Source: Massalongia carnosa (lineage: Eukaryota). Taken from it: 64,000 nt of DNA. Position 1 is the stretch's first letter; each line of letters begins with the position of its first letter. The notes under the pieces were generated by a model. That model had not been told where the DNA came from. It searched no databases and saw only the letters and a program-made list of their open reading frames with translations. A program made the position numbers and the translations under genes. The stretch spans positions 186,001-250,000 of the forward strand of contig OZ287081.1 of assembly GCA_965645245.1 (NCBI GenBank), given 5' to 3'. Of the stretch, positions 296-52,551 are shown in pieces.

Positions 296-461
296 TAGAG
301 TATACAATAACTCGATTATTGAGCTTGATTTATTGATCTAAGCTCTTGGTGATTGGAGAATGATTTACGTTTTAGATAGACACTTGAAATTGACACTTGG
401 AATTGAGGTGATGATTGCTCGCATTGAAAGGATTTTGCACCCATTCTCTCAGTTACTAGAA

Positions 462-2011: not shown

Positions 2012-2049
2012 TAGAGGCGAACGCCTCGAGTCGGCACGAGGTAAGCGAG

Positions 2050-10898: not shown

Positions 10899-11029
10899 CA
10901 CATGAACTAGCCAGAAATAATACCGCTTGTTGATAATCGAAAGTAGCGTACTCGTCAGAAGGAGAAGTGGATGATTATTTGATTATTTGTGCCTTCACTT
11001 TCTTCTTTCATAGTATTCTCTGGCTCACA

Positions 11030-12851
11030 ATGCCGGTGGAACTTATCATCGGAGGCATAGGTCTTGCGAGCCTGCTCTCTCTGTTCCAGACCTGCAATAG
11101 AGCGTATGATGTTTTTATCCGATCTGCAAATGACATCTGCAAAGACGCACATCTACTAGGTGTGCATCTTGAAGTTGAGAGACGGAGGCTGTAGCTCTGG
11201 GGCAGATATCTTGGGATTTCTCAGGCGCAGGGGTGCCAATTGCTATTGAGAGAATCGTACGAGACGCAGAAATTCGTTGTTGCGCGTTTCGACGCTATCA
11301 AATTGTTATTGGACGACATCGACCTAATCATGATTCGGTATGGGGTCAGAATTTGCGAGGCTGGTCAGGATTCAAGCCCAGATCCAATGATTGAGCTTCA
11401 GGATCTGAATCTGGACGATATACGCAGCTGTGCCGCGGTGAATATTGCGGAAGTCAAACGGACGACGATGGAACGTTCGATCGTAGTCTCAACATCGCGG
11501 CTAGGAAAGCTCCGTTGGGCACTGAGCGACAGCGTCAAGCTTAGGAGACTTGTTGATGACTTGCGACTGTTGAATGAGAGCCTGTGGATTGCGTTGCCCG
11601 CAAACATGTTGGATTGCGCTGGCAAAGGGTTTACCATCTGTGGTGCTTCCGGGGATTTTGGATCAGGCAACGCTGTCAGAAGTGAAGAACAACGCGAAAC
11701 GGAGCAAAACAACGGAGTTGCTCGCTTCATGCGCAGATCTGAGGCGAGCTGCCTTAACCGCAGTGATGAACGAGTCGAGTCCATCCTTTGCAAATGAACT
11801 CCTGCTATCGTCAACCAGTGTGACGGATTTGGTGAGTTTCAAGTCTGGAGATACCAAGAAAGCCGGCCAGAATAGATTCATTGCCTCAGTCGCAAGGGCG
11901 GATGGAAGCAATGAACCCGTGATTCTGGAATGGAGATATGTGGACCGATCATTAAATTTCAATGACATGGAAACTATACGATCGCGCATCAAGACGCTTG
12001 CTGTGGTACTTAGCTCGGAGAGATCAGCCGATTTCGGGCTTCTCAGATGCATTGGTCACTTCAAAGACACGAAGTATCTTGCAGAAAAGTCTATTGAGAG
12101 ATACGGTCTTCTGTTTAGGCCTCTAGCTATGTCAAGACTACCCCAACCATCAAACGCTGCATTGCTAACATCAATATCGTCTCGCCCTTACTCTCTCCAT
12201 GAGTACATAAATGGCACAACGACGCCTCCGTTCCTGGGTGATCGGTTCCAGATTGCTACGGCTCTCTGTAATATCATTCTTCAGCTTCATGCGTCTGATT
12301 GGCTTCACAAAGCAGTCAGTTCATCAAATGTTCTTTTCAGCCTGTCACCGACTTATTCATCATCCTCAGACCTCGATCCATCCCACCCATTCCTGCTAGG
12401 TTTCGACTTCTCGCGTCCTGACCGCCCTACCACACCCTCGCTGGAGAATCCTTTGGACCGAAGCAGCAACGATTACCGCCACCCGTCCTTGTGGCTGTCT
12501 GATACTTCTCCGACCTCGCCGCGATTCCGCAAACAGTACAACATCTATGCGCTCGGAGTTGTGCTTCTCGAGATTGGTAACTGGAGTTTGATTGGGGCCC
12601 AGCCAGATAAATACAGGGACTCAAGAAAGCCACAAGTCTGGCAAAACCGCTTACTCTTGTGTGCAGAAAGCCTTGGGTCCAGATGTGGCAAAATATATCA
12701 AGAAGTGGTCGAGACTTGTTTGATGGGTCGAGTCGTTGAACACGACTCGGTAGGGCAGAGTACTCGTATGAGTGAGTTTGAGGCAGAAGACTTCCCCCAA
12801 GCTTCTTTTCTTTTTGACGTTGTGTACAAGCTTGGTAGATGTTTTGCTTGA
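11030..12851 (+). pseudogene. HeLo-domain + pseudokinase protein (MLKL-like architecture), copy 1
   Basis: Hydrophobic N-terminal helix MPVELIIGGIGLASLLSLFQTC, LEVERRRL.LWG and KLRWALSD..KLRRLVDDL..LNESL fit HeLo. The kinase fold has LHKAVSSSNVL and LGFDFSR. TAG at 11192 and a +1 frameshift at about 11609 relative to copy 2. Confidence 0.88.
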
Positions 12852-15800
12852 GATTATCAGTGTTGATGTTATACTAAAACGTTAATTTAATAGACAAGGT
12901 TAGGTAAGTGATGACTGCTTGACTAGAATAGACTAAGGGTAGATTAGTTGATGGATGTTCATAAAACACCCACGATAGACAATAATCAAAATTATTCTCT
13001 TCAAAAACACTCGTGCATGCATCAAGTGATTAATTCACTTCAACAATCTGTTCGGTTTGGCTTGCAAGGCACTTTCACGGGGACAATGTTTGCATTTTTC
13101 GAACCCAGGGATAAGGTAAGTGCGTAGCCCAGGTATTCTTCACTGCCAGAGGAAGTGCATGCGTTGCACCTTTACTCCTCAACTGCATGCAAATATCGTT
13201 TCTTCCAGCTTCAAAACACTCCACAAAAAATATCTTTGAAGCCCGATTTCCCTAGAGGTATGGGGGATCCGAGACAAACAAAACATCCAAGGGGCTGGCT
13301 CCCGAGGAGTTGAGAAGATTCGGGTTTGCGCCGGCTTCCAGAAACGCAGTTGCCGTTTCTTTGCTTCCTAAAAAGGCTGCAAGATGAAGTGCAGTGTTGC
13401 CGTGATTATCTCTACTGTCGATATGGTGCTGTTTGGGAAGTTGGCGCACCAGCAGATTGATGGTCCTTCTCCTCCGAGAACAAGCAAATAGTTCCGTGTC
13501 GAGTATGCCTCCACCGGACTTTATACCGCAGGCCATCATAAGGGCGGAGTATTTGTTGATCTCGTCTACGATAAAAAGCAAATCCGGGGTCTCGGATTTC
13601 TGGCAAGCTGCAGAGGTACTCTATCGGCTTCTCGCCCACAGTCGTCGACCAAGCGATAAGGTGGCCGAACAACGATAGCTCTGCAAAGGCCATGCCTGCC
13701 GGACGGCTTGAGAGTAAAGTCTGGCGCTCGGTGTTAGGGGTTTTGCAAAGAAGACGATCTGCAACTGCGAAATTACAGTTAGCCACTGCCGTCATAAATG
13801 CAGTCATGCCATCCAACTCAGTCCTGTGGCCTAGGAGAGAATGAGCACCGTGGTCGAGAAGGATACCGGCTGACTCCGCGTTATTCGAGAAAACTGATAA
13901 TAGATGTAAGGTGCTCCGTTGAAACCCGTCCATACTGGTTGCGTCACCCCCGTAGTCGAGAACGATGTGTAAAATTTCAGGATCACCCCTGACTGCAGCT
14001 TCGTGAACTAGGCGATGTTCGACCCAAGCTAGATGTGAGAGCGGAAGTTTTGCGTGCTTAAGGCTGCTTGGATCTGCGTCTTTTATAGTCGCTATGCTCT
14101 TGCTGAGACCGTTGAGTACAATTTCTAGGATTTCTCCCCGACACTCAGACACAGCCTCTGAGACAAGGTATTGATAAAAAGTATCGACTTCAGCCCAATC
14201 ACGGAACGGAATGGGTGTCGACAACAGTAGCTTAAGAGCCCTCTCTTGTTCTTCGGGTTTGGCATAATTAATCAGTATTCGCAGATCACTCCATAAAGTC
14301 ATAACTGAAGACGCATCCTCTCTAGAAACCTTAAATTCGGGTTGTCTCGAAAACCTGTCAAAGGAACTGCGATCTTCCAGGGAAGCAAGCAAATCTCACA
14401 GGCGTTACTTTATCAAGAACAAGCATATTGATATCCGCCCCTTTTTTCAAGAGAGCGTCTACATATATCTCATTTCCCATAGCCATTGCCCAGTTGAGAG
14501 GAGGCCCTTTCACATAGAAACTTTTCAACCCGCCAAGAAAACTTGGTAGCGCCATTTCTTGAGTTACTTGCGCATTGATATCGGCACCGCGTAGGAGGAA
14601 TTCTTCCAATACCCGTGTAGGGTCCGGCAATGAGCCAAGCCAGTGCAGCGGAGTTTTACCGCCAGCATAAACCAAATCGACATCTACGTTAAGGTGCAGC
14701 AGTGCCAGAATCTTCTCCTCCCTCCCAGCACGACAAGCCATGAGCAACGGTGTCACTCCATCGGCGTTCCGCACGTTCTTGTCGATTTTCAGGACGGAAG
14801 TACAGTATTCCAGGACTGATATGTTAGAGTTTTCCGATCCAGCGGTTAAATTCAATAACGTGTTTTCAAAAAAACTCGTCCTGTCTTGCAGGTGATCCAT
14901 CAGCCATCGGGGAAAATTGCATTGACAGATCCGAGGTCGTCTCATACAAATCGCAAACGGCGTTGAATTTCGTGTTTACAAAGCTTGCCGTAGAGCCGTT
15001 GTAGACTTTACTTCTCGCCACAGCTACTGTTCTGGCTAAGATGGGATCTAATTCTGCTAAGGCGAGGTAAGCCTCGGATGGAATGCCATCTGCAAACAAC
15101 ACGATTATTGCCAGCCTTTTTCGAAAAGGTATTTGAGGGGAAATATCTCGATTTATAAACGAGTGTCGGCAGAGCCAAACATAGCAGTAATGACTTCCGG
15201 ACATGGCAGCATCTTCGAGGAACTTAAAAGCACGAGCAATATCTCTCTTGATGCCGAATCCTGAGATAGTGGTCAAAAAGAGTTGGTAGGCCGCCTCACC
15301 CTTTCGAAGAACAGCTTTGGATGAGTAAGATTATGTAAAGCTTGGGGAACTGCTGACTTGATAAGTGCTGAATTGGGTTGTGATGGCTGTGTTAAGCAAG
15401 TTTGTTTCAAACTTTCGCTACATTGCTGTAACTCCTTAATCAAAGCGTCAGGCGTCAATCGATGTGGATCCATGTCTATTTTACTCAAAGAATTGCACTC
15501 GAGGCACTGGTGAAGATGTTCAGTTCCGTTGTCATCTTCGTATATCGTTAGGAGTTCCTGAGTTAATCGAGAACGCGTGGCTGAGTTGAACATATGTTCA
15601 CGCCCCATGGTAAAGAGGGGTATCTATTTTAACCGTCAAAATCGCCAATCATAAGGAGACAATGAGACCACGTTTTTAGTTTTAAAAAAGGTTACCATAA
15701 CATACACTAAAGAATGAGGTCACTCACGAAGTTGGGAACTACACTTTTCGAAGTTGTAGATGAGAAGAAGGAAAAGATATTTAGAAGATCCGGCTCTTCC

Positions 15801-16312
15801 TCATCTTCCCCTGACGATTCCGAATTGCTGCTACGGTGGTGACTTGATAGTTGCTCGATAACGTTAATTATTCGTTCTGTGATTGCAGACGGACAGGATC
15901 TGATTCGAGATCCGCTTCGCGGTCTCGAACCATACGGGCATTTTGCGATAGTAACGGTACAGCCTCGAGTGTGGATTTTTCTATAGCCTCTAGCCTTTTT
16001 ATGGGGTCTTTCAGCAAAAGGCTCGCTAGTAAACGACTAAGGGGCAATGAGTTGTCTGGCGCAGTGCTGTCACCAAGGAGAGCGGAAAGACAATCGGTGT
16101 CTTTCAGAAACTATATCGCTAACAGTCTTTCTTCCTGAGACCATTCCGTCGGCATGATTTCTAATTCGTCCATTGGGTTTCTGCCATCTATCAAGAGGCG
16201 CCACAACAGCAGTCCAAGGAATACCAGTCGGTTGCGGCAATTGCATCGACATCTTCGAAATAGTCTGGGCACTGGCCGCCTCGAAAACGTCAGATTAATC
16301 TCAAACACCCTA

Positions 16313-18218
16313 ATCGTGCCACGCCTCACCCCCTAGCGGGGGTGCTGGCCACCCAAATGACATACACCACCCATATGACGTTTTTAATTAAAAAGTTCTA
16401 TTACCTCCTCAAAGGTAGCCCCATCCTCATATTCTATGTCTAATAACTCTATCCAGGTGTTGATCCACTGATCAGCTTTCTTACCTATCAATTTGAAGCC
16501 TTTGGCGCACTGTTTATTCCACTTATTTCGTGCATTTGCATCGATCCTCTCTTGCCGCTCCTTCGCTCTATTATGCTTAGCCACTTTCTCTAGCCTCCAG
16601 GCCTTAATTTTTCCTCTTACGTCGCCCACAGTTATAACACCGCCCTTTTGAGCAAGCGATCCATCTAGTGCTTCTCTTTTTGAGCGTTGTTTGTGATGAT
16701 TTTGAGTGGCTGCAATGTCTCGCTCCGCCAACGCTAGCGAATTCGCAGCTTCGAGCGACCCCTTTAAATATTGATCCATCTTTTTACGACGATCCTCGGG
16801 CAGATAAAAGTCTTCTAGACCTCTTTGTAACTCCCTTCCGCGTCTAAACAACTGCTTAGGACCATGTGGAGTGCCTTGAAAGGATGGTGACGAGCCGAAA
16901 GGGTCCGGAGTTGGCTCCTTTGAAGGGGGTTGCCAGCCACTTATTTTATCTAGCACCATCTTGGGTGAGTAAGGAATTAGACCAGTGTGTTCAAAGGCCG
17001 ATAGAATATTTGATCTAGTAAAGGCCTTTGCTCGCATGTCTGTGAAAGCGGCAAAAAAGTCTTGTTTGTTGAAATTATCGCTCCCGAGTCGAACAGCATC
17101 GTCAATTACATCGGAATGATAGTGCTTCATGGGCTGAAATATTCCCACATCCAATGGCTGAGTAACATATGTAGAATGCGGGGGAAGACCGAACCAGATG
17201 ATATTCTTGTGATTGCAGTACTCAATAAATTCGTATGTAAGATGAGATCCATAATTGTCCATGATGAGGAGTCTCCAGCCACCTACCTGAGTCTTCCGAC
17301 TATGTTTTTCAAAGTGCTGTATCCACTCATAAGCCTTAACATCATCGGAATACCCAGAGGAAGTAGTAGCAAGCAGTATATCGTCGTCGAGGTCGTTTTC
17401 TTGCACCCATTTATTTAGAATATAAAATCCGGGCACGATGAGCATCGGAGGGATCGTCGCTCCTCCACCACTAATACTTTCAACGTCACTGATCAGATCA
17501 CGTACACCCGGATCAGTAACACGAACAGGACCTTTGGCAAGCAATGTGATGACAGTATAACCCCTGCCAACGCCTATCCGAAAGCCTGACTCGTCCATGT
17601 TCCAAATATCTTCGGGTCCGATCCCCTTCTCGTGACAAATTTGACGAAATTCATGGAAGTAAGCCTTTGCAACATCGTTTGTAGGGAAGTCTTCCTTTCG
17701 ACTGCAAGAGGTGTCTGCTTCCTCCTATGAAATTGAGGGTGCTGAGCTAGAAATCGTGCTGGCCAGTGCTGTCCGACTCGGGGAGGATCGACAGAATTCG
17801 CTTGAGCAAGAAGGTAATTTGCTGCACCCCGCAGATGCCTGATGCGCGCAGAAATCGATAGTTTATCCAGTCTTGTCAAATATATGACTATTGCACCTCT
17901 TTGATCGTCAGTTAGAGCATGACCATGAGGCTCACGTTCAAAGAAGGAAGTATGGGTTCCAGCAATGCGTCTCTGAAGAGTTCTGACTTTGACGTTGAAT
18001 GCGACGGCAGCATCGGTTGCAAAGCGGTATTCGCCATCGCCAATAGCATCCAGGGCATCCTGAATATGATGCTCCAATTCTTCATAATTGGTAGGCATTG
18101 TGTTGTTGAATGGTGATCGTTGAATAGTTGAAGTCAAAAATCGAAAAAAACGTCATATGGGTGGTGTACGTCATTTGGGTGGCCAGCACCCCCGCTAGGG
18201 GGTGATGCGTGGCACGAT
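16313..18218 (-). mobile_element. pogo/Fot1 DNA transposon inserted in a kinase-gene intron
   Basis: About 70-bp TIRs atcgtgccacgc.tcaccccctagcggggg...; TA duplicated at 16311-12 and 18219-20, with a single TA at the empty site near 41902. Transposase 18098-16384 (WNMDESGF, LIMDNYGSH, QPLDVGIF) has one frameshift near 17680. Confidence 0.95.
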
Positions 18219-19312
18219 TACAGTAGAGTAGATGACTACCTCTGGGGCGCGCCACATGGATGTTCCACCAATCCAATATTTCTTCTTGCCATCACCATTC
18301 TCGATTATCGCCGAACAACCAAAGTCAGCGAGCTTTGGCTCCAACGCTCCTCCATCCCCAATCTTGAGTAAAACGTTTTCGGTTCAAGCCGCTTCCTATC
18401 TTTGATCCGATGATGCTTTTGACCGTGGCATCGATTGGAGGGTTGTTTGTCTGATGATCGGCCAAAGTCGTCTCGCAATATTCTAGCACAAGCGTCGGCC
18501 ACATTGGCATTCCGCTCTCATACCCTGCGCCAAACCTGTTCTCCCAAACGATCGCTTGCAGCTTCACGATACTCTCATGCTCACGGAGCGCGGGATGGAT
18601 GAGTGCCTGAATCTCCCGGCAGATGGCGTACAACTGTCCTTGATCGTCAATCTCCTGCGAGGCTTGGCTGCGAACAACCATCCGCTTAAAGGCGACATAG
18701 GAGTCGATTTAGGGGAAGATCTCCAATAAAGATGGTCAAATGCAACGCTCGGTAATTGAGGGGGCGCACTTGCTGCCGATAGACGGAGAAATACGTTCCT
18801 TTACCAATCGGCTCGCTATCACTCCACGATCGAATGGAGCGCGGCTTGAGCCCCAGACGCTGCAACCAGGCGATAAATCCGCCGTATGTCAGCCCGAGTA
18901 GATTCGGGACAGACCCCATCTGGCAGACCCCTCGTAAAGTTCTACTGCTTGTTAGGACTAGCTTAAGCCTCACCCTCACACTAAATTAATAGTCCATCTA
19001 CTAATGCAACATCCCCCCGCAAGCTTCATATACCCAGTCACTTGCAACATTACTTATTGCTGTAAACATCACACGTAGCTAGCCTCGGATTATTTGATGA
19101 GGGTAATCGTCCCATATACGCTGCGGGAGAGGGAGGGGTGGAGCCGGAAGAGGATAAGGAAGAGGATAAATAGAGGATAAGGAGGAGGTATGGAGGATGT
19201 TTCGCAATGAGTTTTCAGAGTTGAGGTCATCGCAATGAGTGTATATAATAGTAATGAAATAGTAGAGTGTAATATGTGTGACTTTTTCATACAGTCAATC
19301 TGGATATAACGA

Positions 19313-22300
19313 CTTATCCGAGGCCGATTTTTTTTTTGGGGCTGCGGGGTTGAGATTTAGCGTAAAAAATGCTGGCTTGGCGGTCCTTCGAAAAGTGGCC
19401 TTATCGCCTGTGACTTTGGGGTATAAACCCACTTATGGGCGTGACCCTGCAAAATCGTCACGCTGTATATGGACAACATCGCCCGTGACCAAGCTCCATA
19501 CCACGATTTTCTCTCCTCGACCCATTCAGTCGAACTGCAAAAAGCCTGCCTGTCCCCGTTTTGCGCCGCGAGCAATTTGCTGATCAACGAGCGTTCTACA
19601 TACCACGGATACCCTCTTTGGCGGCCGCACGATGGACCCGGGCCCCTCCGCTGCAGGCCCCGCTGTCGCAGATCCGGAGACGGCGGCGGTTATTTCTTGG
19701 CCTCCTCCTGAGGCTTACGTTGATGTCGACGCCGTCAAGCGTGAGTCTCAGGCCTATGCCACCCACGGCAACAACGAGGCCGCTATGGCCGCCACCATGA
19801 GGCGCGTCCGCGGGATGCGGGAGGAGGATCGGAGGGCCAACACCCTTAAGACGTACCGCAAGTGCTGGCATCTGTGGGAGGTGACTACGATAGGTATGCC
19901 CTGCAAATTTGGGCCTACGCTAACATCCTACAGAAGTGGTGCCGACGTCGCAATTTTCCTGACGGCGTCCTTGTGTGGGAGCGGAAGATGCTCCTCTTCC
20001 TCGAAGAGGTCGTCCTCCGCCTGCGCTTCGTCCCACGTCCAAAGCTCACAGGCGCAGCAGCGCAGGCCAGGCGGCGGGATCAGAATTGCCATCGGCAGGC
20101 TAAGCGCCGCGCGTTGAAGAGGGGGAATGGGAAGGCGATGGAGGCGGTGGAAGCCTCGCCAGCGGTAGAGGGAGAGGAGGTGGAGGAGGTGGAAAAATTC
20201 GAGGAATTCTCCGACGGCGAGGAGCTCGTTGAGACGGTGAGTCGGCCCCTGAACTCGAATTCAGGGATAGAATCATCTTTTTGTAGCTTACTGACTCGTC
20301 TTGCAGGAAGCCGACGACCCTTTATCCCGGCCCCTGGCGCCCGATAGCGTGGAATCGGGCTACGTCTCTGCCCTCTGCGCCCTCTTCGATGACCAGCATC
20401 TCGAAGAGAATTTGGTGGTGCCCATCCCAGAGGGAAGGCCACCAAAGCCCTGATGACGCGCTTACGCATCGATTGGAGCGCTTTCAAGCGGGCCTCGTTC
20501 GAGGATCGCGCGATCCACGGCCTCACCGACGGCTACACGACTGAGCAGGCCGCTCAATTGTCGGCAATGCTGCTCGCCGGGGGCAAGGTTTTGGGGAGGA
20601 GGGCGTGGCGGGCGGCGAGTGGCACCTCCTGCGGACTCGCCTCGACTTCCTCCTAATGCATTCGATGATGCTGCGGGGGGAGTCAACGCGGAGGGCTGAG
20701 CTACCTGACCTCTGCGCCTACGACCTCCCTAACGAGGGGTCCGATTGCCTTGCGTTGATCCTTCGAATTGGCCAGGGCAAGAGCATTCCTCTGGCGGACG
20801 GGGGCAACTCGCGCCGCCAGCATTACCATGGTGCTTTGCGGAGCAGAGATGTCGTCCTCTGTCCTCTCGGCGCCCTCGCCCACTGGCTCGTCTTGCGCTG
20901 GGATCTCCTCCTGGAGAAGCGGCCGGACTTCCGGGATCGATCTTCGTGGTATTTCACGAAGGTCATCTCCGGGAGCTTGGCGCGATCTAAGGAGGAGATC
21001 TCCGACAAAACACAGGCCCGATGGATCAAGCCGGCTTTGGATGCTGTCGGCGTCGACAGCTCCAAGACGGTCCACACCATGCGGCAGTCCTCGTCACGGC
21101 TGGCCGACATGTGGGAGGTCCCCGCGGACCAGGTAAGTACTCTACGATTCATGGCCCCTTATACTTACTAGCATTACCCTTATATCAACTACTACAGATC
21201 ATGAGAGCAGGCGGATGGGAACGTGGCGTCTGGGCCACTAACTACCTCACTCGCCTGCCGCGTGTCTACATGCGTCGCGCCGCCGGCTTTGGCAACTCCC
21301 CCGGGAGTTGCTTTTTGAGAAGAGGAGGACACTCACCGGATCTGGCCCTGCAGCGGCAGGTGTGGCCTTGGGTGGATGACGCTCTGGCGGCGTACAAAGG
21401 CGGTCTTTTTCCTGATGCGGATAAGGCAGGGAAGAAGGTTCTGGAGATGTTGCTGCGGCTGCGTTGTGTCTTCCTGCAAGACGCGGCGCTTCTACAGCCT
21501 CAGTATCCTGAGCTTTCGCTCTGGAGACACCAAGTCTTCAGAGATCCCCTTTGGCCTGCGTTCGCGGCGAAGATACGGGAGTTGGAGGCTGTAGAAAAGG
21601 AACCTTTGCACGTGGCCATCCACGGCGTGCTGCCTCTTGTTGCTGACTCCGTTGATGGCATCAGTAACAAGGTCAGCGGTGTTGCAATCAAGCAAGATCG
21701 CACGCTCAACGCTGTGGAGAGGTTGCTCTCCGGGCAGAGCCAGCTGACGACCACCTTGAGTGCGCTGCCGGCGGCAAATGCCCAGGAGATAGCTCGAGTC
21801 CTGGGTTCGCAGCTCTCACAATTGCAGGCCACGGTCTCGACGCTGCCTCGATCCTTTCTGACGGTTCCTGTGGAGGCTGTTCGGAGGGACTGGCTGCTGG
21901 ACGAGGCTTCTTGGCGAGGGCAGGCGACTGCTCTTGCGACGGCGGCGCACTCCGTTGGTGAAGAGCCTGCTGCGTCGGCGTCCTCGTACGTCGACGCAGT
22001 CGCTTCTCTCCTTCCTGCACCTTCTGTCGTCCTCACTTCCGTCCCCGGAGAGACGTCTACGGTCTCTGCGCCCTGTGGCTCCCTCCCCCAAGAGGGGCCG
22101 CTTCAACGTCCTCCTGGCTGCCCGGCGGAGCCCATTCTCGGCGGCGTGACCTCGGCGGAGGCGGTGTTGGAGGAATTCGCGGTTGGGACGTTGGTGGAGG
22201 GGGTCCAGCGTGCATCTCTCGACGAGTTGGACCGCCTCTTTGGGGCTAAGTGGAGGTACACTCCTGCCCTGAGGCAGCGGTTCTACGTCAAGAGACGGAT

Positions 22301-23000
22301 CCGTCGGTACCTTCAGGGGAAGGCGAATGAGCAGGGGAGGGATCCGTGGGATATTGCGCGGGAAGTTGACAGTTTGGGGCTCTCTAGACATCAGATCTCT
22401 AAGCGTATTGACGCTGGAGAGGATCTGCTTCGTAGATAGGCCAATGGTACCTCTCTTTCTCTCTACGAGTACTAGTCATGGAGGCCTGTAACACCGTTTC
22501 TACTAAGAAGCGATCACTCGTAATGTGCCCGTAGTACCTCCTCGTTCCTGTGACTGGGTGGGACATCTTGTGACGAGGCGTGCAACAGCACCACGTATCG
22601 CGCCATCAGCGCTACGTTAATTCTATTCGGGGTAAGATGTTTCTTCTATCCAGAAGAAGCTCTTTTCAGCAACCCAGTTTCAAAATTCTAGCAAAACCCC
22701 TTTATGGTTCGATTGCGAAGCGCAAATGTCGACCTTCGCAACGACCAGGGCCAAGCAGGGCGTCGGTTTTGCACGGCGATCATACACTTCACAGCACATT
22801 AAATCGGAAAATTCAGGCCCGGGTCTACTCGTTGAAGGATGCTCTATTTGACGGTTTAAATTGCTTCAAAATAAAAATTTTTCTCGCTGCGCGAGACTAC
22901 AACTTCGGGTCACTAAGGCTATTTGGCGTGACAAGAAAAAATCGCGGGATTTAGGATTTTAAACGCCGCTAAGTGTCACGGGCGATAATTATGGCTTATC
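19313..23000 (+). mobile_element. Crypton (tyrosine recombinase DNA transposon, CryptonF-like)
   Basis: GC-rich island bounded by a 6-bp direct repeat CTTATC (19313-18, 22995-23000). Subterminal inverted motif ttatcgcc(t/c)gtgac. Encodes a tyrosine recombinase gene. Boundaries are inferred. Confidence 0.8.
19632..22439 (+). pseudogene. Crypton tyrosine recombinase with GCR1_C-like C-terminal domain
   Basis: Motifs MMLRGESTR, GQGK, CPLGALA, HTMR, RAGGW and NYL; C-terminal LDELDRLFGAKWR. Introns at about 19881-19933, 20237-20306 and 21133-21197. Apparent frameshifts near 20400 and 20600. Confidence 0.85.
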
Positions 23001-24252
23001 AGCTAGGTATATGTTGCATTAGTAGATGGACTCTTAATTTAGTGTGAGGGTGAGGCTTAAGCTAGTCCTAATAAGCAGTAGAACTTTACGAGGGGTCTGC
23101 CAGATGGGCGGATCTACTCGATATCCTCATGATGTCAGTAGAAACGTCGGGCTCTATCGACGAATTTCGAGGATTCGAGAGGCTCGCTTCCCACGCTGCT
23201 CTAAATGCATTCTTTTTGCTTTTCTCTTACAGTAAAACAAGGATTGTGTCAAAAATCACCTAACCTAAAAGATATCGAAAGTTAACACCGAGTTATGTGT
23301 AATGTGTTAAAACGGGCAACCGATGCCAAATACCGAAACCAGCTGACAAAGCAATTTGCATCTGCCTCGGCAAGAAATGACCTGTGGCGGTGGCAAATTG
23401 GCATGGAGTCAGAAATCGCATCGGAAGAGACAGCCGATGAGATGGGAATGGAGGCTTCTGAAATCGCTGGTGGACCGGCATCAATAAGAGCAGTTTTACC
23501 CTAGTCATATCAAATGCCTAGTGCTACCATTTCACAGTTCTAACAAAGCATAATAGATTTTAAAAGCAGAATGCATTCTTTTGATATTGAGCTGTCGCGC
23601 ACAGAACGTGAAAGTTGTGATTCAGAGTGAGCGAATGCTTAGTGCTCATAGAAGAGTGATGCTGTGAACATCGTTATTCGACAAGTCGACTTCCACGTCA
23701 AGCAGCGTTAGAATCACGTTATGCATAATCGGAGAAGTTGAATCATTAGTACTAGTTTATTCTATGGACTTGATGGACTTGATGGAGTGCTGATAACATA
23801 AAATGTCTTCGTTCCCGTTTAACTCGATTATGATCTTGTGGAAGAATCCTCAGGGTTAGAGAGTAGTGCTTGAAGTAGTAGCCGACTTCTCGAATAACGA
23901 TGCTCACAGCAGTGTTAGAACACGCCATGCATACTCGGAGAAGTTGAATCATTAGTTCTATTCTATGGATTTGATGAACTTCCTACCCGTTTAACTCGTG
24001 GAAGAACACAACAACATGTAGCCTTATTTATCTACCTCGAAGATCATTGGCGATGACGTGTCTGAACTATGTACGCCGCCTAGATGCATTCGGTGAAACG
24101 AGTTGGACCAATCAGTGCTAAGAAAGCAAAAGGCTGCGCCCACCTGTCTCGGAGAAATTTTACTCTCTCTTGACCACCAGTACACCTCAGCATTGTTTTG
24201 AGAAGTCTACTGTTGCTAGCGCAATACCTTAGTCTACGACTATCATTATTTG

Positions 24253-27200
24253 ATGCAGGATTCGATGGAAAGCTCTTCGAAACGGGAGCGATTGAGGTCC
24301 TTGTTTAGTCACAAGGCTAGTAAGGCAAAACAGGACTCGTGCGGAATTTCAGTGCAAGGATCTTCCACATCACAATCAACGAAACCTGATTCTGCCTCTA
24401 TTCCGACATCAGCTGTCAAGGTGAACACGGGCTCCGGATCGGTTCCGAATTCAACTGAAGAGGCGAGATCGATCAAAACATCTTCTTCAGCGGGTGCGCA
24501 AGCTCTGAATGTTCAGAGTAGTCTCTGGGACATTACGCTACAGAAACTATCATTAGAGGAGAGAGCGGCTATTCAACAAACAACCTTGAATTCAAAACTA
24601 GAAATCGTGGAAAAATTACACGGTGTTGTTCAGCAGAAACGAGATGAATGCCGCGAGAAACAATGGAAATTTCGTTTCCAAGGCCAAGAGATCATCCTTC
24701 GCGATTTAGCGGAGAAAATTATCTTTGGACTCAACAAATTCAAGGAAATTGGAGACGTGGCGGTAAATTTTGATCCCGTTCATGCTGCGTTGCCATGGGC
24801 GGGAGTCAGGTTTTTGCTTCAGGTGAGATTGGATCTTCCTTTCACATGATCTTGAAAAGACCTAACCCTGGAAAAGATGGCGGTGGGAGAAAGAGAGTTG
24901 ATGGCAGCTTTACTTATTGGCGGAGAGAAGGTGACGCAACTTATCAATCGGTGCACAATATATGAACTCCTTTACCTTCCTTCGAATGTATCCGGACCGT
25001 TCACACTTGCAATAGAGAACTTGACAACGGCGTTGACAGCCTTGTATCTCGCTGTGTTAAGATTCCTTGCCCGTGCAAAGAAGGAATATGATAAAGGATC
25101 TGTATCTCGAACTCTGGGGAGTGTGTTGGGTTCGAAAGTTCTCGAATTTGTTGAGAGTTGTAAGGACTTAGAAACCCAAGTAGATACGGAGGCAAGAAAT
25201 TTGGATCGCATACAAGATCGGGAGGAAAGAAATTTGGATCGCATACAAGATCGGGAGGCAAGAATGAAGCTAAAGAGCTTATTTGAAGACTTGCGAAGCC
25301 CAATCTTGCGCGTCGATGCTCGAGTGAGTGCTTTGAGCGATGAATATGAAGTGGACAAGCGAAATAAAATACTCTCTTGGATATCCGACATTCCATACAA
25401 GGACATCCACTATGTTGCTCGCGAAGGATGGACGAAGGGGACAGGAAATTGGCTGCTGGAGCATGACCGATATGTAAAATGGCGTGCGTCTACCGCATCT
25501 ACAATATTATGGCTGCACGGAATGCGTAAGTGTATATACAATATCTAGCATTTCTTACTGACTGTGTCCATCAGCTGGCGCTGGCAAAACTAAACTTGTG
25601 TCAACAGTCGTCGATGATCTGACTAAAAGTTTTGCTCAGCAATCGAATGACGAGGCGCTGGCCTACTTTTATTGCGATCGCAATCAGCCTAATCGTCAAG
25701 ACCCAGCAGTGATCATGAGCAGCTTCGTGCGACAGTTGTCGAGAGTCAAAAGCAGCAACACGATTCAACGTCCGATAATTCAAAAGTATGAAATAGAGCA
25801 AGCAAATGGCTTTGCCTCAAGAGGGCTCAAGATTGAGGAAAGTTTTAATCTTCTACTTCAGCTGATTGAAAGTTATCCTCAAATCACGCTAGTTGTGGAC
25901 GCTTTGGATGAGTGCAACAAGGAAACAAGGGCCTCTTTCATGGAAAAGTTAAACACCTTGGTCAGCGGCAAGTCTTCTAACTTGGTAAAAATTTTCATCT
26001 CGAGCAGGCCAGACCTAGATATCAAACACCGATTTAGTGATGGATCAAACATGGAAATCAGGGCAACGGATAATGAGAAGGACATAGCAATGTTCATTGA
26101 CGATAAGATCAAAGATAAAAAGGAATGGTATTGCAAGATAAGTCTCGAACTTAGAGAGCTCATCTCCGAGACGTTGGTGAGCAAAAGTGACGGAATGTAA
26201 GTTTCTATAACTGTCGGCCACTAGCATTGATTTCTAACAGTAGAATAGGTTTCAGTGGGCGTCTCTGCAGATTATTCAACTACATAAACTTCCGCCCCGT
26301 AGACGCGATATTGAAGAGCGACTAGGCAAACTTCCTAAGGACCTTGATGCGGCATATGACGAAATATATCGCAGAATCAAGGCTCAAGAAGGAAGTGCGC
26401 CCGAAATTGCCAATCGTGCATTTCAATGGATCATGTACTCCGTTGTCCCCTTATCGCCAGAAGCATTAGTCGCTGGGGTTTGTCAAGATCCTAACACGGA
26501 CGTTGTCGACGCTGTTGATGTCGATATCGATACTGTTCTCGACGCTTGTCAAAACTTAATCGTTGTTGATTCTCAGCTTCATATCTGCCGATTTTCCCAC
26601 TTATCAGTTCAAGAATATCTGGAAAGACACTGGGAATACTATGGTGCAAATGTTCTAATAGCGAAAGTATGTTTGTCTTTGTTGAATGATCCAGTTCAAC
26701 AAAAACGGGATACCGAATTGCAAGACGAAAACAAAAAACTCGACGACATTATTCGCTACGCAAGATTCTGTTGGGCAGATCACGTACAAAACCACGATAA
26801 AGAAATGATTGATTCTCGTTTATCGGCTATTTTAAAGCAATTTCTTGGATCCTTCAATGAAAGCAGCCCAGCGTACAAGAGTTGGCATGAAATAATAGAC
26901 AAGGATAAAAATAGGAGAGATCGTGATAAGCAGATGTTTAATACCAGTCTGGTAAATAAAGTTTTTCGTAGTATTAGTCCTTCTTCTTTAACTTTACAGG
27001 CAATATCAGCGTTTGGATTCAATAAAATCATATTGGATTGGTGGGAAACAGCTGTTTTCGATGTCGAGACACGTAATAAGAATAATGAATCATTACTGGA
27101 TATTGCAAGTCAATACGGTCATCTTTTCATTGTCAAGATTTTGTTGAAGGAAGGGGCGGACGTGAACGCGCAAGGCGGACTCTATGGCAACGCGCTGCAG

Positions 27201-29353
27201 ACGGCATCGGACCGAGGTCACGAGAAAATCGTGCAGTTGCTGTTGAACAACGAAGCGGACGTGAACGCGCAAGGCGGATACTTTGGCAACGCGCTGCAGG
27301 CGGCATCGTTCGGAGGTCACGAGAAAATCGTGCAGTTGCTGTTGAACAACGAAGCGGATGTGAACGCGCAAGGCGGAGGCTGTGGCAACGCGCTGCAGGC
27401 GGCATCGTTCGGAGGTCACGAGAAAATCGTGCAGTTGCTGTTGAACAACGAAGCGGACGTGAACGCGCAAGACGGACTCAATGGCAACGCGCTGCAGGCG
27501 GCATCGTTCGGAGGTCACGAGAAAATCGTGCAGTTGCTGTTGAACAACGAAGCGGACGTGAACGCGCAAGGCGGAGGCTTTGGCAACGCGCTGCAGGCGG
27601 CATCGTCCGAAGGTCACGAGAAAATCGTGCAGTTGCTGTTGAACAACGAAGCGGACGTGAACGCGCAAGACGGATGGTATGGCAACGCGCTGCAGGCGGC
27701 ATCGTTCGGAGGTCACGAGAAAATCGTGCAGTTGCTGTTGAACAACGAAGCGGACGTGAACGCGCAAGGCGAACCCTATGGCAACCCGCTGCAGGCGGCA
27801 TCGTTCGGAGGTCACGAGAAAATCGTGCAGTTGCTGTTGAACAACGAAGCGGACGTGAACGCGCAAAGCGGACTCTATGGCAACGCGCTGCAGACGGCAT
27901 CGGACCGAGGTCACGAGAAAATCGTGCAGTTGCTGTTGAACAACGAAGCGGACGTGAACGCGCAAGGCGGACACTTTGGCAACGCGCTGCAGGCGGCATC
28001 GTTCGGAGGTCACGAGAAAATCGTGCAGTTGCTGTTGAACAACGAAGCGGACGTGAACGCGCAAGGCGGATGGAATTGGAACGCGCTGCAGGCAGGATCG
28101 TCCAAAGGTCACGAGAAAATCGTGCAGTTGCTGTTGAACAACGAAGCGGACGTGAACGCGCAAGGCGGAGAGTATGGCAACGCGCTGCAGGCGGCATCGT
28201 TCGGAGGTCACGAGAAAATCGTGCAGTTGCTGTTGAACAACGAAGCGGACGTGAACGCGCAAGACGGACTCAATGGCAACGCGCTGCAGGCGGCATCGTT
28301 CGGAGGTCACGAGAAAATCGTGCAGTTGCTGTTGAACAACGAAGCGGACGTGAACGCGCAAGGCGGAGGCTTTGGCAACGCGCTGCAGGCGGCATCGTCC
28401 GAAGGTCACGAGAAAATCGTGCAGTTGCTGTTGAACAACGAAGCGGACGTGAACGCGCAAGGCGGACGGTATGGCAACGCGCTGCAGGCGGCATCGTTCG
28501 GAGGTCACGAGAAAATCGTGCAGTTGCTGTTGAACAACGAAGCGGACGTGAACGCGCAAGGCGGACGGTATGGCAACGCGCTGCAGGCGGCATCGTCCAA
28601 AGGTCACGAGAAAATCGTGCAGTTGCTGTTGAACAACGAAGCGGACGTGAACGCGCAAGGCGGAGGGTATGGCAACGCGCTGCAGGCGGCATCGTTGGGA
28701 GGTCACGAGAAAATCGTGCAGTTGCTGTTGAACAACGAAGCGGACGTGAACGCGCAAGGCGAACACTATGGCAACCCGCTGCAGGCGGCATCGTCCGGAG
28801 GTCACGAGAAAATCGTGCAGTTGCTGTTGAACAACGAAGCGGACGTGAACGCGCAAGGCGGACCCTATGGAACGCGCTGCAGGCGGCATCGTTCAAAGGT
28901 CACGAGAAAATCGTGCAGTTGCTGTTGAACAACGAAGCGTAAGTAAATGACAGCGCGCTGCATAATGCATGCATATATGGTCAAGAGAAGGTGATGCAGT
29001 TATTGTTGAAAAATGGAGTGCAAGTTAACGACAAGTTGCTGGTAATGACATTGCCGGAAGGTCACATAAGGATAATACAGAGCAGATTGGGGGAAAAATG
29101 GAAAATTAACGATATCGTATTACTGACTACATCATCGAGATATCACGAGAAGGCAGTGCAATTTTTGTTGAATAACGGGGTGAACGTCAATGACAGCTCG
29201 CTGCATGCATCAAGGGAACGTTACGAGAAGACGATGCAGTGGTTGTTGGATGAAGGAGAGAACATGTACGTGATAGATAGCTCGCTGCAGGCATTGAGGA
29301 AATCTCACGAGAGGGTTTTGCAGTTGCTGGAGGCAGCCATGAAACCTTGCTGA
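24253..29353 (+). CDS. Fungal NLR, copy 1: N-terminal helical domain (Goodbye-like/NACHT_N)-NACHT-WHD-ankyrin repeats; C-terminus frameshifted
   Basis: [16 protein letters not shown]; Walker A GMPGAGKT spanning intron 25526-25574; Walker [18 protein letters not shown] spanning intron 26197-26248; first intron 24823-24876. Open until a 1-nt deletion near 28870 (stop 28928), with a further TAA at 28940. Confidence 0.93.
27155..28939 (+). repeat. 18 x 99-bp ankyrin repeat array with high internal conservation
   Basis: Unit [33 protein letters not shown], near-identical at the DNA level except at the x codons. Confidence 0.97.
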
Positions 29354-30036
29354 TATCAAGTCCTTCATCAATCACCAATACAATAGAGATGCTTCATTTT
29401 CAGTTGCTTTCAAATAGTCTTCTATTTTCTTCTTGAAAGAATTATGCGGGATGAGAGACACAATTTGAAAACGTGAGAGCTTGTAATTGAGAAATCCTAG
29501 CGTAACAGATTAGCATTGCTTTCCTATCGTTCGATCTGCTTAATTTCTGGCTATTTTCCCCTAAAGGTTGTTTTATCTTTTTCGCGTTGAAATTTTCATA
29601 AGGACTTGAAGTAAAAGAAAGAGGCAGTTTTTAATGTTTTTATCTAACGTAGTTCAGAAATAGAATATAATAATTCGGCTAGGGCGAAAGGTAATGCCGG
29701 GACTGAGTGGAGGCAGGCCGTGGATAGCCGACGAAGGCCGAAGGTCGAAGGAGGATGATGCCCAAAATAGTTGGACAAGCAAGGGAGAGAAAAGGGCATA
29801 AATAGGCCTTTTGGCACTCTTCTCCTCATCATCACCATTGATTCGGAGTTCAGCACCAAAAGGTCTTTTGCCTTCCCACCCACTCCCTGTATCAGCCGCA
29901 TAGGTAGATGGAGTTTTTCAGAGTTGCCCAAAAATAGATAGAAATTATGTATATGTTCAGCTGACACGATGGAGCCCGCGAATTACATGTCTCTGGCCAA
30001 AATCGTGAGAGTTCGAGAAATCAATCTTGGATTTAA

Positions 30037-31959: not shown

Positions 31960-32862
31960 GTCGGTTTATTATGATTTGTATCGTTTGTGATCGGTTGCTG
32001 ACTTGTTCTGATTTCGTCTTTCCTTCTGAAGCATTGCCTGAAATGCAAATGTATCATCTCTCTCTCTTACTGAAGACAATATATTAATAACGATGAAGTT
32101 CGCATTACTCTCCGCTACTTCATGATTCTACCTATGATTTTCATCTAAATACCTCCCGACTAATTTTATTCTTAATGCTTTAACTCCAAGATTGATTTCT
32201 CGAACTCTCACGATTTTGGCCAGAGATATGTAATTCGCGGGCTCCATCGTGTCAGCTGAACATATACATAATTTCTATCTATTTTTGGGTAACTCTGAAA
32301 AACTCCATCTACCTATGCGGCTGATTCAGGGAGTGGGTGGGTGGGCAAAAGACCTTTTGGTGCTGAACTCCGAATCAATGGTGATGATGAGGAGAAGAGT
32401 GCCAAAAGGCCTATTTATGCCCTTTTCTCTCCCTTGCTTGTCCAACTATTTTGGGCATCATACTCCTTCGACGTTCGGCCTTCGTCGGCTATCCACGGCC
32501 TGCCTCCACTCGGTCCCGGCATTACCTTTCGCCCTAGCCGAATTATTATATTCGATTTCTGAACTACGTTAGATAAAAACATTAAAAACTGCCTCTTTCT
32601 TTTACTTCAAGTCCTTATGAAAATTTCAACGCGAAAAAGATAAAACAACCTTTAGGGGAAAATAGCCAGAAATTAAGCAGATCGAACGATAGGAAAGCAA
32701 TGCTAATCTGTTACGCTAGGATTTCTCAATTACAAGCTCTCACGTTTTCAAATTGTGTCTCGCATCCCGCATAATTCTTTCAAGAAGAAAATAGAAGACT
32801 ATTTGAAAGCAACTGAAAATGAAGCATCTCTATTGTATTGATGATTGATGAAGGACTTGATA

Positions 32863-35800
32863 TCAGCAAGGTTTCATTGCTGCCTCCAGCAACTGCAAAA
32901 CCCTCTCGTGAGATTTCCTCAATGCCTGCAGCGAGCTGTCTTTCACGTTCATGTTCTCTCCTTCATCCAACAACCACTGCATCGTCTTCTCGTAACCTTC
33001 CCTCGATGCCTGCAGCGAGCTGTCATTGACGTTCACCCCGTTATTCAACAAAAATTGCCCTGCCTTCTCGTGATATCTCGATGATGTAGTCAGTAATACA
33101 ATATCGTTAATTTCCCATTTTTCCACCAATCTGCTCTGTATTATCCTTATATGACCTTCCGACAATGTCATTACCAGCAACTTGTCGTTAACTTGCACTC
33201 CATTTTTCAACAATAACTGCATCACCTTCTCTTGACCATATATGCATGCATTCTGCAGCGCGTTGTCATTTACTTCCGCTTCGTTTTTCAACAGCAACTG
33301 CACGATTTTCTCGTGACCTCCGAACGATGCCGCCTGCAGCGCGTTGCCACAGTCTCCGCCTTGCGCGTTCACGTCCGCTTCGTTCTTCAACAGCAACTAC
33401 ACGATTTTCTTGTGACCTCCGAACGATGCCGCCTGCAGCGCGTTGCCAAAGTGTCCGCCTTGCGCGTTCACGTCCGCTTCGTTTTTCAACAGCAACTGCA
33501 CGATTTTCTCGTGACCTTCGGACGATGCCGTCTGCAGCGCGTTGCCATACCCTCCGCCTTGCGCGTTCACGTCCGCTTCGTTGTTCAACAGCAACTGCAC
33601 AATTTTCTCGTGACCCTCGAACGATGCCGCCTGCAGCGGGTTGCCATAGGGTTCGCCTTGCGCGTTCACGTCCGCTTCGTTGTTCAACAGCAACTGCACG
33701 ATTTTCTCGTGACCTCCGAACGATGCCGCCTGCAGCGCGTTGCCAAAGTGTCCGCCTTGCGCGTTCACGTCCGCTTCGTTGTTCAACAGCAACTGCACGA
33801 TTTTCTCGTGACCTCCGATCGATGCCGCCTGCAGCGCGTTGCCATAGGGTTCGCCTTGCGCGTTCACGTCCGCTTCGTTGTTCAACAGCAACTGCACGAT
33901 TTTCTCGTGACCTTTGGACGATCCTGCCTGCAGCGCGTTCCAATTCCATCCGCCTTGCGCGTTCACGTCCGCTTCGTTGTTCAACAGCAACTGCACGATT
34001 TTCTCGTGACCTCGGGACGATGCCGCCTGTAGCGCGTTGCCATACCCTCCGCCTTGCGCGTTCACGTCCGCTTCGTTGTTCAATAGCAACTGCACGATTT
34101 TCTCGTGACCTTCGGACGATGCCGCCTGCAGCACGTTGCCATTCCATCCGCCTTGCGCGTTCACGTCCGCTTCGTTGTTCAACAGCAACTGCACGATTTT
34201 CTCGTGACCTCGGGACGATGCCGCCTGCAGCGCGTTGCCATACCGTCCGCCTTGCGCGTTCACGTCCGCTTCGTTGTTCAACAGTAACTGCACGATTTTC
34301 TCGTGACCCTCGAACGATGCCGCCTGCAGCGCGTTGCCATACTCTCCGCCTTGCGCGTTCACGTCCGCTTCGTTGTTCAACAGCAACTGCACGATTTTCT
34401 CGTGACCTTTGGACGATGCCGCCTGCAGCGCGTTGCCATAGTATCCGCCTTGCGCGTTCACGTCCGCTTCGTTGTTCAAGAGCAACTGCACGATTTTCTC
34501 GTGACCTTTGGACGATGCCGTCTGCAGCGCGTTGCCATAGGGTCCGCCTTGCGCGTTCACGTCCGCTTCGTTGTTCAACAGCAACTGCACGATTTTCTCG
34601 TGACCTCCGAACGATGCCGCCTGCAGCGCGTTGCCATACCCTCCGCCTTGCGCGTGCACGTCCGCCCCTTCCTTCAATAAATTCATGACAATGAAAAGAT
34701 AACCGTATCGACTAGCAATATGCAGTAATGATTCATCATTCTTATTACGTGTCTCGACATCGAAAACAGCTGTTTCCCACCAATCCAATATGATTTTATT
34801 GAATCCAAAAGCTGATACTGCCAGTAAAGTTAAAGAAGATGGACTAATACTATCAAAAACTTTACATACCAGACTGGTATTAAATACCTGCTCATAATTA
34901 TCTCTCCTCTTTTTATCATTGTCTATTATTTCATGCCAACTCTTGTACGCTGGGCTGCTTTCATTGAAGGATCCAAGAAATTGCTTTAAAATGGCCGATA
35001 AACGAGAATCAATCATTTCTTTATCGTGGTTTTGTACGTGATCTGCCCAACAGAATCTTGCGTAGCGGATAATGTCGTCGAGTTTTTTGTTTTCGTCTTG
35101 CAATTCGGTATCCCGTTTTTGTTGAACTGGATCATTCAACAAAGACAAACATACTTTCGCTATTAGATCATTCGCACCATAGTATTCCCAGTGTCTTTCC
35201 AGATATTCTTGAACTGATAAGTGGGAAAATCGGCAGATATAAAGCTGAGAATCAACGACTATTAAGTTTTGACAAGCGTCGAGAACAGAATCGATATCGA
35301 AATAGACAGCGTCGACAACGTCCGTGTTGGGATCTTGACAAACCCCAGCGACTAATGCTTCTGGCGATAAGGGGACTACGGAGTACATGATCCATTGAAA
35401 TGCACGATTGGCAATTTCGGGCGCACTTCCGTCTTGAGCCTTAATTCTGCGATATATTTCGTCATATGCCGCATCAAGGTCCTTAGGAAGTTTGCCTAGT
35501 CGCTCTTCAATATCGCGTCTACGGGGCAGAAGTTTATGTAGTTGAATAATCTGCAGAGACGCCCACTGAAACCTATTCTACGGTTAGAAATCAATGCTAG
35601 TGGCCGACAGTCATAGAAACTTACATTCCGTCACTTTTGCTCACCAACCTCTCGGAGATGATCTCTCTAAGTTCGAGACTTATCTTGCAATACCAATCCT
35701 TTTTATCTTTGATCTTATCGTCAACAAACATTGCTATTTCCTTCTCATTATCCGTTGCCCTGATTTACATGTTTGATTCATCACTAAATCGGTGTTTGAT

Positions 35801-39863: not shown

Positions 39864-39865
39864 TA

Positions 39866-52164: not shown

Positions 52165-52551
52165 TGTGAGCCAGAGAATACTATGAAAGAAGAAATGAAG
52201 TCACAAATAATCAAATAATCATCCACTTCTCCTTCTGACGAGTACGCTACTTTCGATTATCAACAAGCGGTATTATTTCTGGCTAGTTCATGTGACCTCG
52301 TATTGCTTCTATTTCTAAGGTTGGCGGAAACACAGCGATCTGCACCTCGCTGGCGCCGTCACTCTCGCCGGCGCCTCTACCTAGCGCCCCCTTTCGGGCC
52401 TTGGTGCAGATCGCGGTGGATGCTCCCTCTACCTCTGCGGCTGAGACCTGGAGTGGGTGGGCGGGTCAAAAACTACTATGCAGTGCTACCTCCGAATCCG
52501 AGATGATGAGGAGATATAGGACTGCTGTTGCCATCTATATAGCCTCCATCT

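Follow-up and report, generated by a model that had tools for sequence, protein, structure and literature searches.

Locus Layout and Inverted Duplication

The 64,000-nucleotide stretch of DNA from Massalongia carnosa that was analyzed here (assembly GCA_965645245.1, contig OZ287081.1, positions 186,001 to 250,000 of the forward strand; hereafter the window, with position 1 as its first letter) is a fungal region with many transposons, in which three neighboring genes are found in each of the two arms of an inverted segmental duplication. A Pfam run on 108 six-frame open reading frames (ORFs) of the window, each of at least 110 amino acids (aa), identified these in each arm as a gene coding for a HeLo domain and DUF7580 (gene 1), a gene coding for a protein kinase with ANK repeats (gene 2), and a gene coding for a NOD-like receptor (NLR; gene 3). 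An initial annotation, made from the sequence, had proposed that the three genes comprise a necroptosis-like module in which an NLR sensor activates a kinase, which in turn activates a HeLo-pseudokinase executioner. The placement of the genes in that annotation agrees with the Pfam domains, with the ATG of gene 1 at position 11030, and with the NLR stop codon at position 29353, both in arm A (Table 1).

The described layout was likewise recovered. In arm A, the stop codons of genes 1 and 2 (12849-51 and 13075-7) are 223 bp apart in tail-to-tail orientation (~220 bp in the initial annotation), and gene 2 and the NLR are head-to-head with a spacing of ~1.1 kb (~1 kb in the initial annotation) once a GC-rich insertion between them is removed. 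Self-comparison of the window revealed that the arms comprise blocks of 93-97% identity in inverted orientation, separated by a spacer of ~2.1 kb, in keeping with the claim that the trio was duplicated as a unit. Repeat-induced point mutation (RIP) was considered as the source of the divergence between arms and was rejected; a transition/transversion ratio of ~1.6 without a CpA context bias suggests that the arm differences represent ordinary divergence. Although the layout stood, a Sel1 label given to gene 2 could not be confirmed and the annotation had made no mention that all six gene copies are broken.

Table 1. Coordinates of genes, repeats, and inserted elements in and around the inverted duplication of the window.
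Feature	Positions	Strand	Basis
Arm A of inverted segmental duplication	10899..30036		Self-BLAST against 52294-32180
Gene 1, arm A, HeLo + DUF7580, disrupted	11030..12851	+	Pfam; colinear with homologs P0013 and P0005 in two frames
Gene 2, arm A, kinase/Sel1-like/ANK, disrupted	13075..18892	-	tblastn of P0038, frames -3, -2, -3, -1, -2
Pogo/Tc5-like DDE transposon in kinase domain of gene 2, arm A	16311..18218	-	DDE_1, HTH_Tnp_Tc5
GC-rich insertion, gene 2-NLR interval of arm A	18895..23213		Pfam NDC10_II and GCR1_C ORFs
Gene 3, arm A, NLR: weak DUF7708 N-terminus, NACHT, ANK array	24253..29353	+	
ANK array, 18 tandem 99-bp units, arm A	27156..28939	+	
Arm B of inverted duplication	32180..52294		Self-BLAST
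Gene 3, arm B, NLR copy (5' limit approximate)	32863..37487	-	
Two Tc1/mariner copies, perfect palindrome, NLR-gene 2 interval of arm B	38576..41134		HTH_Tnp_Tc3_2 and DDE_3 in both ORFs
Gene 2, arm B, kinase/Sel1-like/ANK, disrupted	41224..45278	+	
Gene 1, arm B, 3' end: last ~85 codons and stop	45504..45760	-	
Copia-type long terminal repeat (LTR) retrotransposon within gene 1, arm B	45761..50583	+	LTRs 45761-46192 and 50152-50583
Gene 1, arm B, 5' part: HeLo and most of DUF7580	50583..52164	-	

The HeLo-DUF7580 Protein Family

Pfam matches to HeLo (E = 6.3e-10 and 6.7e-11) and DUF7580 (E = 2.5e-7) were detected in the window, those of arm A on ORFs 11195-11794 and 11574-12848. Homologs of gene 1 are encoded without interruption in one frame, with lengths of 584-635 aa (594-632 aa for the intact P0013 and P0005), and the annotated gene model, P0001, spans just the last 361 aa of the arm-A copy. 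The combination of HeLo and DUF7580 is already known as a database family, with Atlas clusters of 50-98 Ascomycota members and named matches from Oidiodendron, Zopfia, Fusarium, Hyaloscypha, and Triangularia.

A family profile (A1) built from 22 homologs of gene 1 matched the HeLo structure of HET-s (2wvn) over positions 1-220 (E = 1.5e-12) and, over positions ~371-504, matched IRAK4 (E = 1.5e-5) and the MLKL pseudokinase (6vbz; E = 5e-5), with CLK1 and BRAF also among the structures matched. An AlphaFold model of homolog P0013 (pLDDT 74.6, pTM 0.79) retrieved solved kinase domains, including TYK2, MerTK, and IRAK4, in a Foldseek search (E ~4e-6). In the WLHK-x motif, the catalytic Asp is retained in only 4 of the 22 family members, and both window copies have Ala at this position; (D/E)FS stands in place of DFG in the DUF7580 family. 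The protein thus combines an N-terminal HeLo/four-helix bundle with a C-terminal kinase fold that has lost its catalytic residues. This is the layout of MLKL, and the label of HeLo-pseudokinase given in the initial annotation is right.

A Conserved Pair of Kinase and HeLo-Pseudokinase Genes

Gene 2 of the window yielded a Pkinase match in an arm-B ORF (41280-41921; E = 1.5e-19) and ANK repeats in arm-A ORFs at 13255-14975. The only catalytic loop that can be read in the window, in arm B, is HGDLKTEK, and the DFG and APE motifs can also be read. The homologs used as references for gene 2, P0038 (856 aa) and P0039 (874 aa), at 50% identity, both lack the kinase domain, which hinted that kinase and ANK repeats might be separate genes. 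This was rejected, as the two are combined in single ORFs at one metagenome locus (L041) and are joined by a canonical 50-nt intron at another (L003). No Sel1 match at E <= 0.001 was detected in the window ORFs or in P0038 and P0039; sub-threshold Sel1 matches of 23-28 bits (cut-off 30.7) were found at the same position in loci L003, L022, and L027.

The conservation of the gene pair was evaluated by searching metagenomes with profile A1. Matches together with 10 kb flanks comprised 80 loci (747 kb) that formed 61 clusters at 90% nucleotide identity, and 311 non-nested ORFs of at least 130 aa, located at most 6 kb from the match in one representative per cluster, were scanned with Pfam. Pairing was counted in one direction, starting from loci of the DUF7580 family. 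A Pkinase ORF on the opposite strand directly adjoins the DUF7580 gene in 29 of the 61 clusters, and in four further clusters (L012, L020, L038, and L060) ANK repeats are all that is present up to the contig end. Of the 18 representatives whose sequence reaches at least 3.5 kb upstream and at least 4.5 kb downstream, 16 contain the kinase. The neighboring kinase gene usually runs on into ANK repeats (17 loci) or TPR (L027 and L047), and both divergent and convergent layouts were found, with L003, L012, and L015 being convergent like the window. Kinase-like tblastn segments are densest near the DUF7580 match: 1.76 per 10 kb occur in the first 3 kb, as compared to 0.19 between 3 and 6 kb and 0.17 between 6 and 10 kb.

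The neighboring kinases appear to be of the active type. In an alignment of 20 of them, E145, H229, D231, K233, N236, D259, and F260, which correspond to the helix C Glu, the His-x-Asp, Lys, and Asn residues, and the Asp-Phe of DFG, are invariant (20/20). Most have HGD in place of HRD, as does the window copy, and, among solved structures, one of them was closest to MAP3K12 (E = 8e-19). A dedicated, active-type partner kinase was thus found for the family; the kinase of the window itself is broken. A Mantel comparison of kinase and DUF7580 distance matrices for 20 pairs revealed a positive correlation (r = 0.81), with none of 9,999 permutations being as high, and the nearest neighbors agree between the two matrices in 8 of 20 cases. 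Collectively, these observations bear out the link between the kinase-ANK and HeLo-pseudokinase genes that the initial annotation had proposed and, so far as can be judged from sequence comparisons, indicate that the pair is a conserved two-gene module.

Adjacency of this kind could also be left over from an ancient tandem duplication of a kinase gene, or reflect shared regulation, with no direct interaction between the proteins. DUF7580 is itself kinase-derived according to its profile and structure matches, and clusters of related genes occur in fungal accessory regions, both of which would be expected of a relic. Nevertheless, the two genes are encoded on opposite strands whether they diverge or converge, the kinases share only 19-52% identity, and kinases are enriched about ten-fold in the immediate vicinity of DUF7580 genes. 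Moreover, at L027 the HeLo domain is replaced by an N-terminal kinase with an HHD loop, yet an HGD kinase with Sel1-like repeats and TPR still adjoins the gene, such that the partner kinase was retained when the DUF7580 protein swapped its N-terminal domain. Such a relic is therefore improbable, and we favor a conserved functional pair.

Several variant architectures were also observed among the metagenome loci. DUF7580 follows an N-terminal kinase that has an HHD loop and retains DFG, forming a tandem kinase-pseudokinase, in L010 (3-2936) and L021 (8720-11143). The tandem kinase-DUF7580 arrangement is also encoded in L027 (8477-10915) and L047 (8393-10762), both with a kinase-TPR neighbor; the protein of L010 additionally carries TPR. 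In L038 (1112-3865), PNP_UDP, HeLo, and DUF7580 are combined in one open frame, with ANK repeats convergent downstream. Finally, a subgroup of HeLo proteins (L045, L051, L065, and L077) has no DUF7580 Pfam match and no kinase neighbor; in these loci a patatin-like phospholipase gene is divergent upstream, and in L045, L051, and L077, not L065, a FAD-binding oxidoreductase gene is located downstream. The patatin and HeLo genes of this subgroup possibly represent another two-gene module.

The NLR as a Probable Bystander

The third gene of the window yielded Pfam matches to NPHP3_N (E = 8.6e-26) and NACHT (E = 2.4e-7), and NPHP3_N/NACHT and ANK matches together extend over 24856-28925. Three GT..AG introns were recognized in the arm-A copy (24823-24876, 25526-25574, and 26197-26248); their splicing restores the Walker A motif LHGMPGAGKT, and homolog P0160 aligns with this copy exon by exon. 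The ANK array is built of 99-bp units, 18 in arm A (93% matches) and 14 in arm B, that are near-identical except at repeat residues 7-10 and 19-20. This focused variation accords with the description of the NLR as hypervariable in the initial annotation. The Walker A-containing NACHT NTPase and the highly similar ANK repeats that come after it match the composition of a fungal NACHT-ANK NLR. The N-terminus has a weak match to DUF7708, homologs carry NACHT_N (PF17100) together with DUF7708, and, among named relatives, a NACHT protein of Trichoglossum hirsutum is the closest (45% identity). Judged by its domains, the window gene is an ordinary all-in-one fungal NLR.

The synteny comparison, which the initial annotation had named as a check on its three-gene module, split that proposal in two when applied to the metagenome loci: the kinase and DUF7580 genes are linked, whereas the NLR is not. 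No NACHT or NB-ARC Pfam match was found among the 311 neighboring ORFs (within 6 kb, 61 clusters). A tblastn search of the 80 loci with seven queries that comprised the N-terminal and NACHT regions of NLRs retrieved a single cluster (L006/L007/L008), at ~9.3 kb from the DUF7580 gene; the same seven queries did recover both NLR copies of the window. NLR membership in the module was accordingly not upheld, and the NLR is probably a bystander beside the pair. Its adjacency most likely reflects the gathering of such genes in variable regions rich in transposable elements (TEs).

These results bear directly on the cascade originally proposed, in which the NACHT-ANK NLR would sense a cue and activate the kinase, which would then phosphorylate the HeLo-pseudokinase. 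The three genes lie side by side and share one duplication, and known fungal systems include clusters of NLRs and HeLo effectors, according to a 2025 review (PMC12881547). However, in addition to the near absence of NACHT domains around DUF7580 genes (0 of 311 ORFs by Pfam, 1 of 61 clusters by tblastn), the NLR has an N-terminal domain of its own of the NACHT_N/DUF7708 kind, and the kinase already bears a repeat region, the usual sensor part. We consider this cascade very improbable. Domain content likewise gave no indication of amyloid pairing of the NWD2/HET-S type, although no search was aimed at such motifs: the C-terminal end of the HeLo protein is DUF7580, and the NLR starts with a domain of the DUF7708/NACHT_N type.

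Decay of the Window Copies and Versions in Relatives

All six gene copies in the window carry disabling lesions in the form of stop codons, frameshifts, or TE insertions. These differ between the arms, indicating that the block was duplicated before it decayed. In gene 1, the reading frame of the arm-A copy is stopped by a TAG at 11192-11194 and shifted by one inserted base at 11609, and the arm-B copy has a 12-base duplication, a 1-base deletion that shifts the frame, and a copia element inserted at codon ~540, the LTRs of which are 99.8% identical. In gene 2, the arm-A copy is interrupted by the pogo element and by an in-frame TAG (13252-13254), has lost 41 bases at 18384/5, and changes frame four times, and the arm-B copy contains frameshifts and at least five in-frame stops, four of them in one tblastn segment and at least one in the kinase part. 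A 165-base stretch of the ANK region (14308-14472) is present in arm A and missing from arm B. The arm-A NLR is the least damaged of the six copies, with only a C-terminal truncation: ~136 aa are removed by the TAA at 28940-28942 and a shift of frame within ANK unit 18. Its arm-B counterpart has three extra in-frame stops (near 37125 and 35765, and at 33397-33399). Given these lesions, a working module at this locus is not supported for this assembly; from the sequence, the kinase/HeLo-pseudokinase unit of the window is predicted to be non-functional in this genome, being dead in both copies.

Seven public sequencing runs contain part of the region 11000-16300, the best of them, labeled as a lichen metagenome, with 0.57 of the sampled words; none of the seven is recorded as RNA. 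Contigs from four runs (X1-X4) were compared with positions 10900-19000 at 97% likeness; X4 had no coverage at 13610-14964. All four runs have C at 11192 (CAG rather than TAG), lack the extra base at 11609, have C at 13253 (TGG rather than TAG on the minus strand), and contain the 41 letters at 18384/5. X1 and X3 have an additional TC at 13589, and the base at 14360 is missing in X1, X3, and part of X2. The pogo element is absent, with 16310 joined to 18219 in X1 and X3 and 16305 joined to 18219 in X2. Of 40 variants listed over 10992-13303, 31 correspond to the arm-B letter and 9 are at positions where the arms agree, with 123 further variants across the full compared stretch; the private indels of gene 1 in arm B are missing from the runs. 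Gene 1 in the runs is thus free of the lesions seen in arm A and in arm B. Divergence of the runs from the window is ~2%, mostly through transitions, suggesting that the runs represent other strains or species, and these relatives probably keep working copies. The 165-base stretch of the ANK region is skipped by one minor contig of X1 (depth 24, as compared to ~115) and by one contig of X2, and both forms may coexist in relatives.

The lesions might instead be assembly errors, with the window genes intact in reality. In the four runs, the stops at 11192 and 13253 and the additional base at 11609 are all absent, and the perfect Tc1/mariner palindrome with its 1271-nt arms could be an assembly artifact. 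Yet the lesions number more than 20 over the six copies, are different in each arm, and include two TE insertions as well as base changes that create stop codons; young TEs in the window retain open frames of 370-810 aa; and, with ~2% divergence, the runs are not from the same genome. Wholesale assembly error is accordingly an improbable explanation, and genuine decay is preferred.

The metagenome locus L001 contains the closest relative of the gene 1 of the window (9959-11827 and 11900-13083; 60% identity), which has an in-frame stop at 10874-10876, together with remnants only of the ANK partner and a kinase remnant at 9108-9359. This suggests that decay of the module is not confined to the genome of the window.

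Proposed Function of the Gene Pair

The reading that we favor, at a probability of roughly 60%, is that the window contains two inverted, independently decayed copies of a conserved kinase/HeLo-pseudokinase unit alongside an unrelated NLR, and that the unit acts as a switch resembling RIPK3-MLKL. The kinase of the unit is tyrosine kinase-like (TKL); its catalytic loop is of the non-RD, HGD type, and Sel1-like/ANK repeats make up its C-terminal region. Its partner is a putative pore-forming HeLo four-helix bundle fused to DUF7580, a kinase fold without the catalytic Asp. If the pair works in the manner of RIPK3-MLKL and of the fungal protease-gasdermin pairs, the repeat region of the kinase would sense a cue, the kinase would then bind and phosphorylate the DUF7580 domain of the neighboring protein, and the HeLo domain would be released to damage the membrane and cause cell death. 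It is from these analogies that we infer activation of the HeLo-pseudokinase through phosphorylation.

Several observations weigh against this interpretation. The kinase of the window has Lys in place of the catalytic-loop Asn. Two of the 18 informative loci have no kinase, namely L001, which contains only remnants, and L045, which belongs to the subgroup with a patatin neighbor; overall, no kinase was found in 28 of the 61 clusters, most of which have short flanks, although those of L069 are adequate. Several loci share one record series and many may be old paralogs from few genomes, such that the counts are best viewed as evidence of a long-lasting linkage rather than of 61 independent events, and co-varying distances can arise from shared descent alone. 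In addition, the extra C at 14867 in arm A, which causes a frameshift, was not seen corrected in any of the runs, and gene 2 of the relatives may also be damaged.

The same partnership could operate in the other direction, with the kinase restraining the HeLo-pseudokinase as a guard or antidote, or with the pseudokinase serving as an allosteric regulator or decoy of the kinase, and death following when the interaction is lost. Adjacency and co-divergence fit any stable partnership, and pseudokinases often serve as scaffolds, whereas the RIPK3-MLKL analogy and the repeats borne by the kinase favor activation, if weakly. Restraint is the less expected of the two, and we regard it as unlikely, if better placed than a relic of duplication; activation by the kinase remains the preferred reading.

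A broader proposal, which we advance tentatively and with well under even odds, is that Pezizomycotina carry a widespread two-gene death switch that is a counterpart of RIPK3-MLKL and dispenses with both NLR and amyloid, with DUF7580 as a portable receiver that may also serve other N-terminal effectors. The notion of a portable receiver follows from the second kinase in L010, L021, L027, and L047 and from the PNP_UDP-HeLo fusion in L038.

Other Features of the Window

The GC-rich insertion that separates gene 2 from the NLR in arm A has a GC content of 0.53-0.62 and is missing in arm B, and the contigs of the other runs diverge from the window at its border (18894/5). Its pair of NDC10_II and GCR1_C frames is one that we take to be of Crypton type. 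The Tc1/mariner palindrome in the corresponding interval of arm B has arms of 1271 nt that are 100% complementary and separated by a 17-nt spacer; it represents either a very recent foldback or an assembly artifact. Upstream of the duplication, positions 1-7600 contain a reducing polyketide synthase in pieces (AT, DH, ER, and KR domains in many short frames), an apparent pseudogene, followed by a MULE transposase at 7686-8846. Downstream, the region 53000-64000 contains a hAT dimerization domain (55283-55696) and Ty3/gypsy-type pol frames with chromodomains (56273-58702 and 61907-64000).

Comparison with Known Systems

Known fungal HeLo systems are switched through amyloid templating by NLRs. 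A conserved pair of active kinase and HeLo-pseudokinase would provide a testable candidate for a fungal switch that, like RIPK3-MLKL, works through phosphorylation, and it would supply a function for Pfam DUF7580. A full-text literature search that covered journals outside subscription yielded no description of a fungal gene pair of kinase and HeLo-pseudokinase and no mention of DUF7580; the pair thus appears to be undescribed so far. Intact pairs exist in metagenome loci (e.g., L003, L015, L022, and L028), and the window adds the case of a duplicated death module that is decaying in both copies within a TE-rich region.

The fungal pair is similar to animal RIPK3-MLKL in that an active kinase of the TKL group is combined with a protein that has an N-terminal four-helix (4HB/HeLo) bundle and a C-terminal dead kinase domain. 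It differs in that the fungal partners are neighboring genes and in that the fungal kinase carries ANK or TPR repeats. The similarity to the MLKL pseudokinase is weak (E = 5e-5) and is exceeded by that to IRAK4; the likeness recovered is one of architecture.

Among fungal systems, HET-S/NWD2 and HELLP/PNT1 also have a HeLo-type executioner gene that adjoins a gene for a repeat-bearing activator, as described in the 2025 review (PMC12881547). However, these systems depend on an NLR and on amyloid templating through a C-terminal prion-forming motif, whereas the HeLo protein of the pair described here ends in a kinase-like domain and its conserved neighbor is a kinase. Gasdermin-protease pairs of the HET-Q1/HET-Q2 type are alike in placing a pore-former beside an enzyme fused to ANK, TPR, or WD40 repeats, according to that review (PMC12881547); here, in contrast, a kinase takes the place of the protease, and the switch is presumed to operate by phosphorylation instead of cleavage. 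In the effector itself, there is a parallel with plant MLKLs and with fungal HELL proteins that contain a kinase or pseudokinase domain, of which the 2025 review reports some examples (PMC12881547). These share the same fused architecture; what sets the pair described here apart is its upstream partner kinase gene, which the portions of the reviewed texts available to us do not describe for either group.

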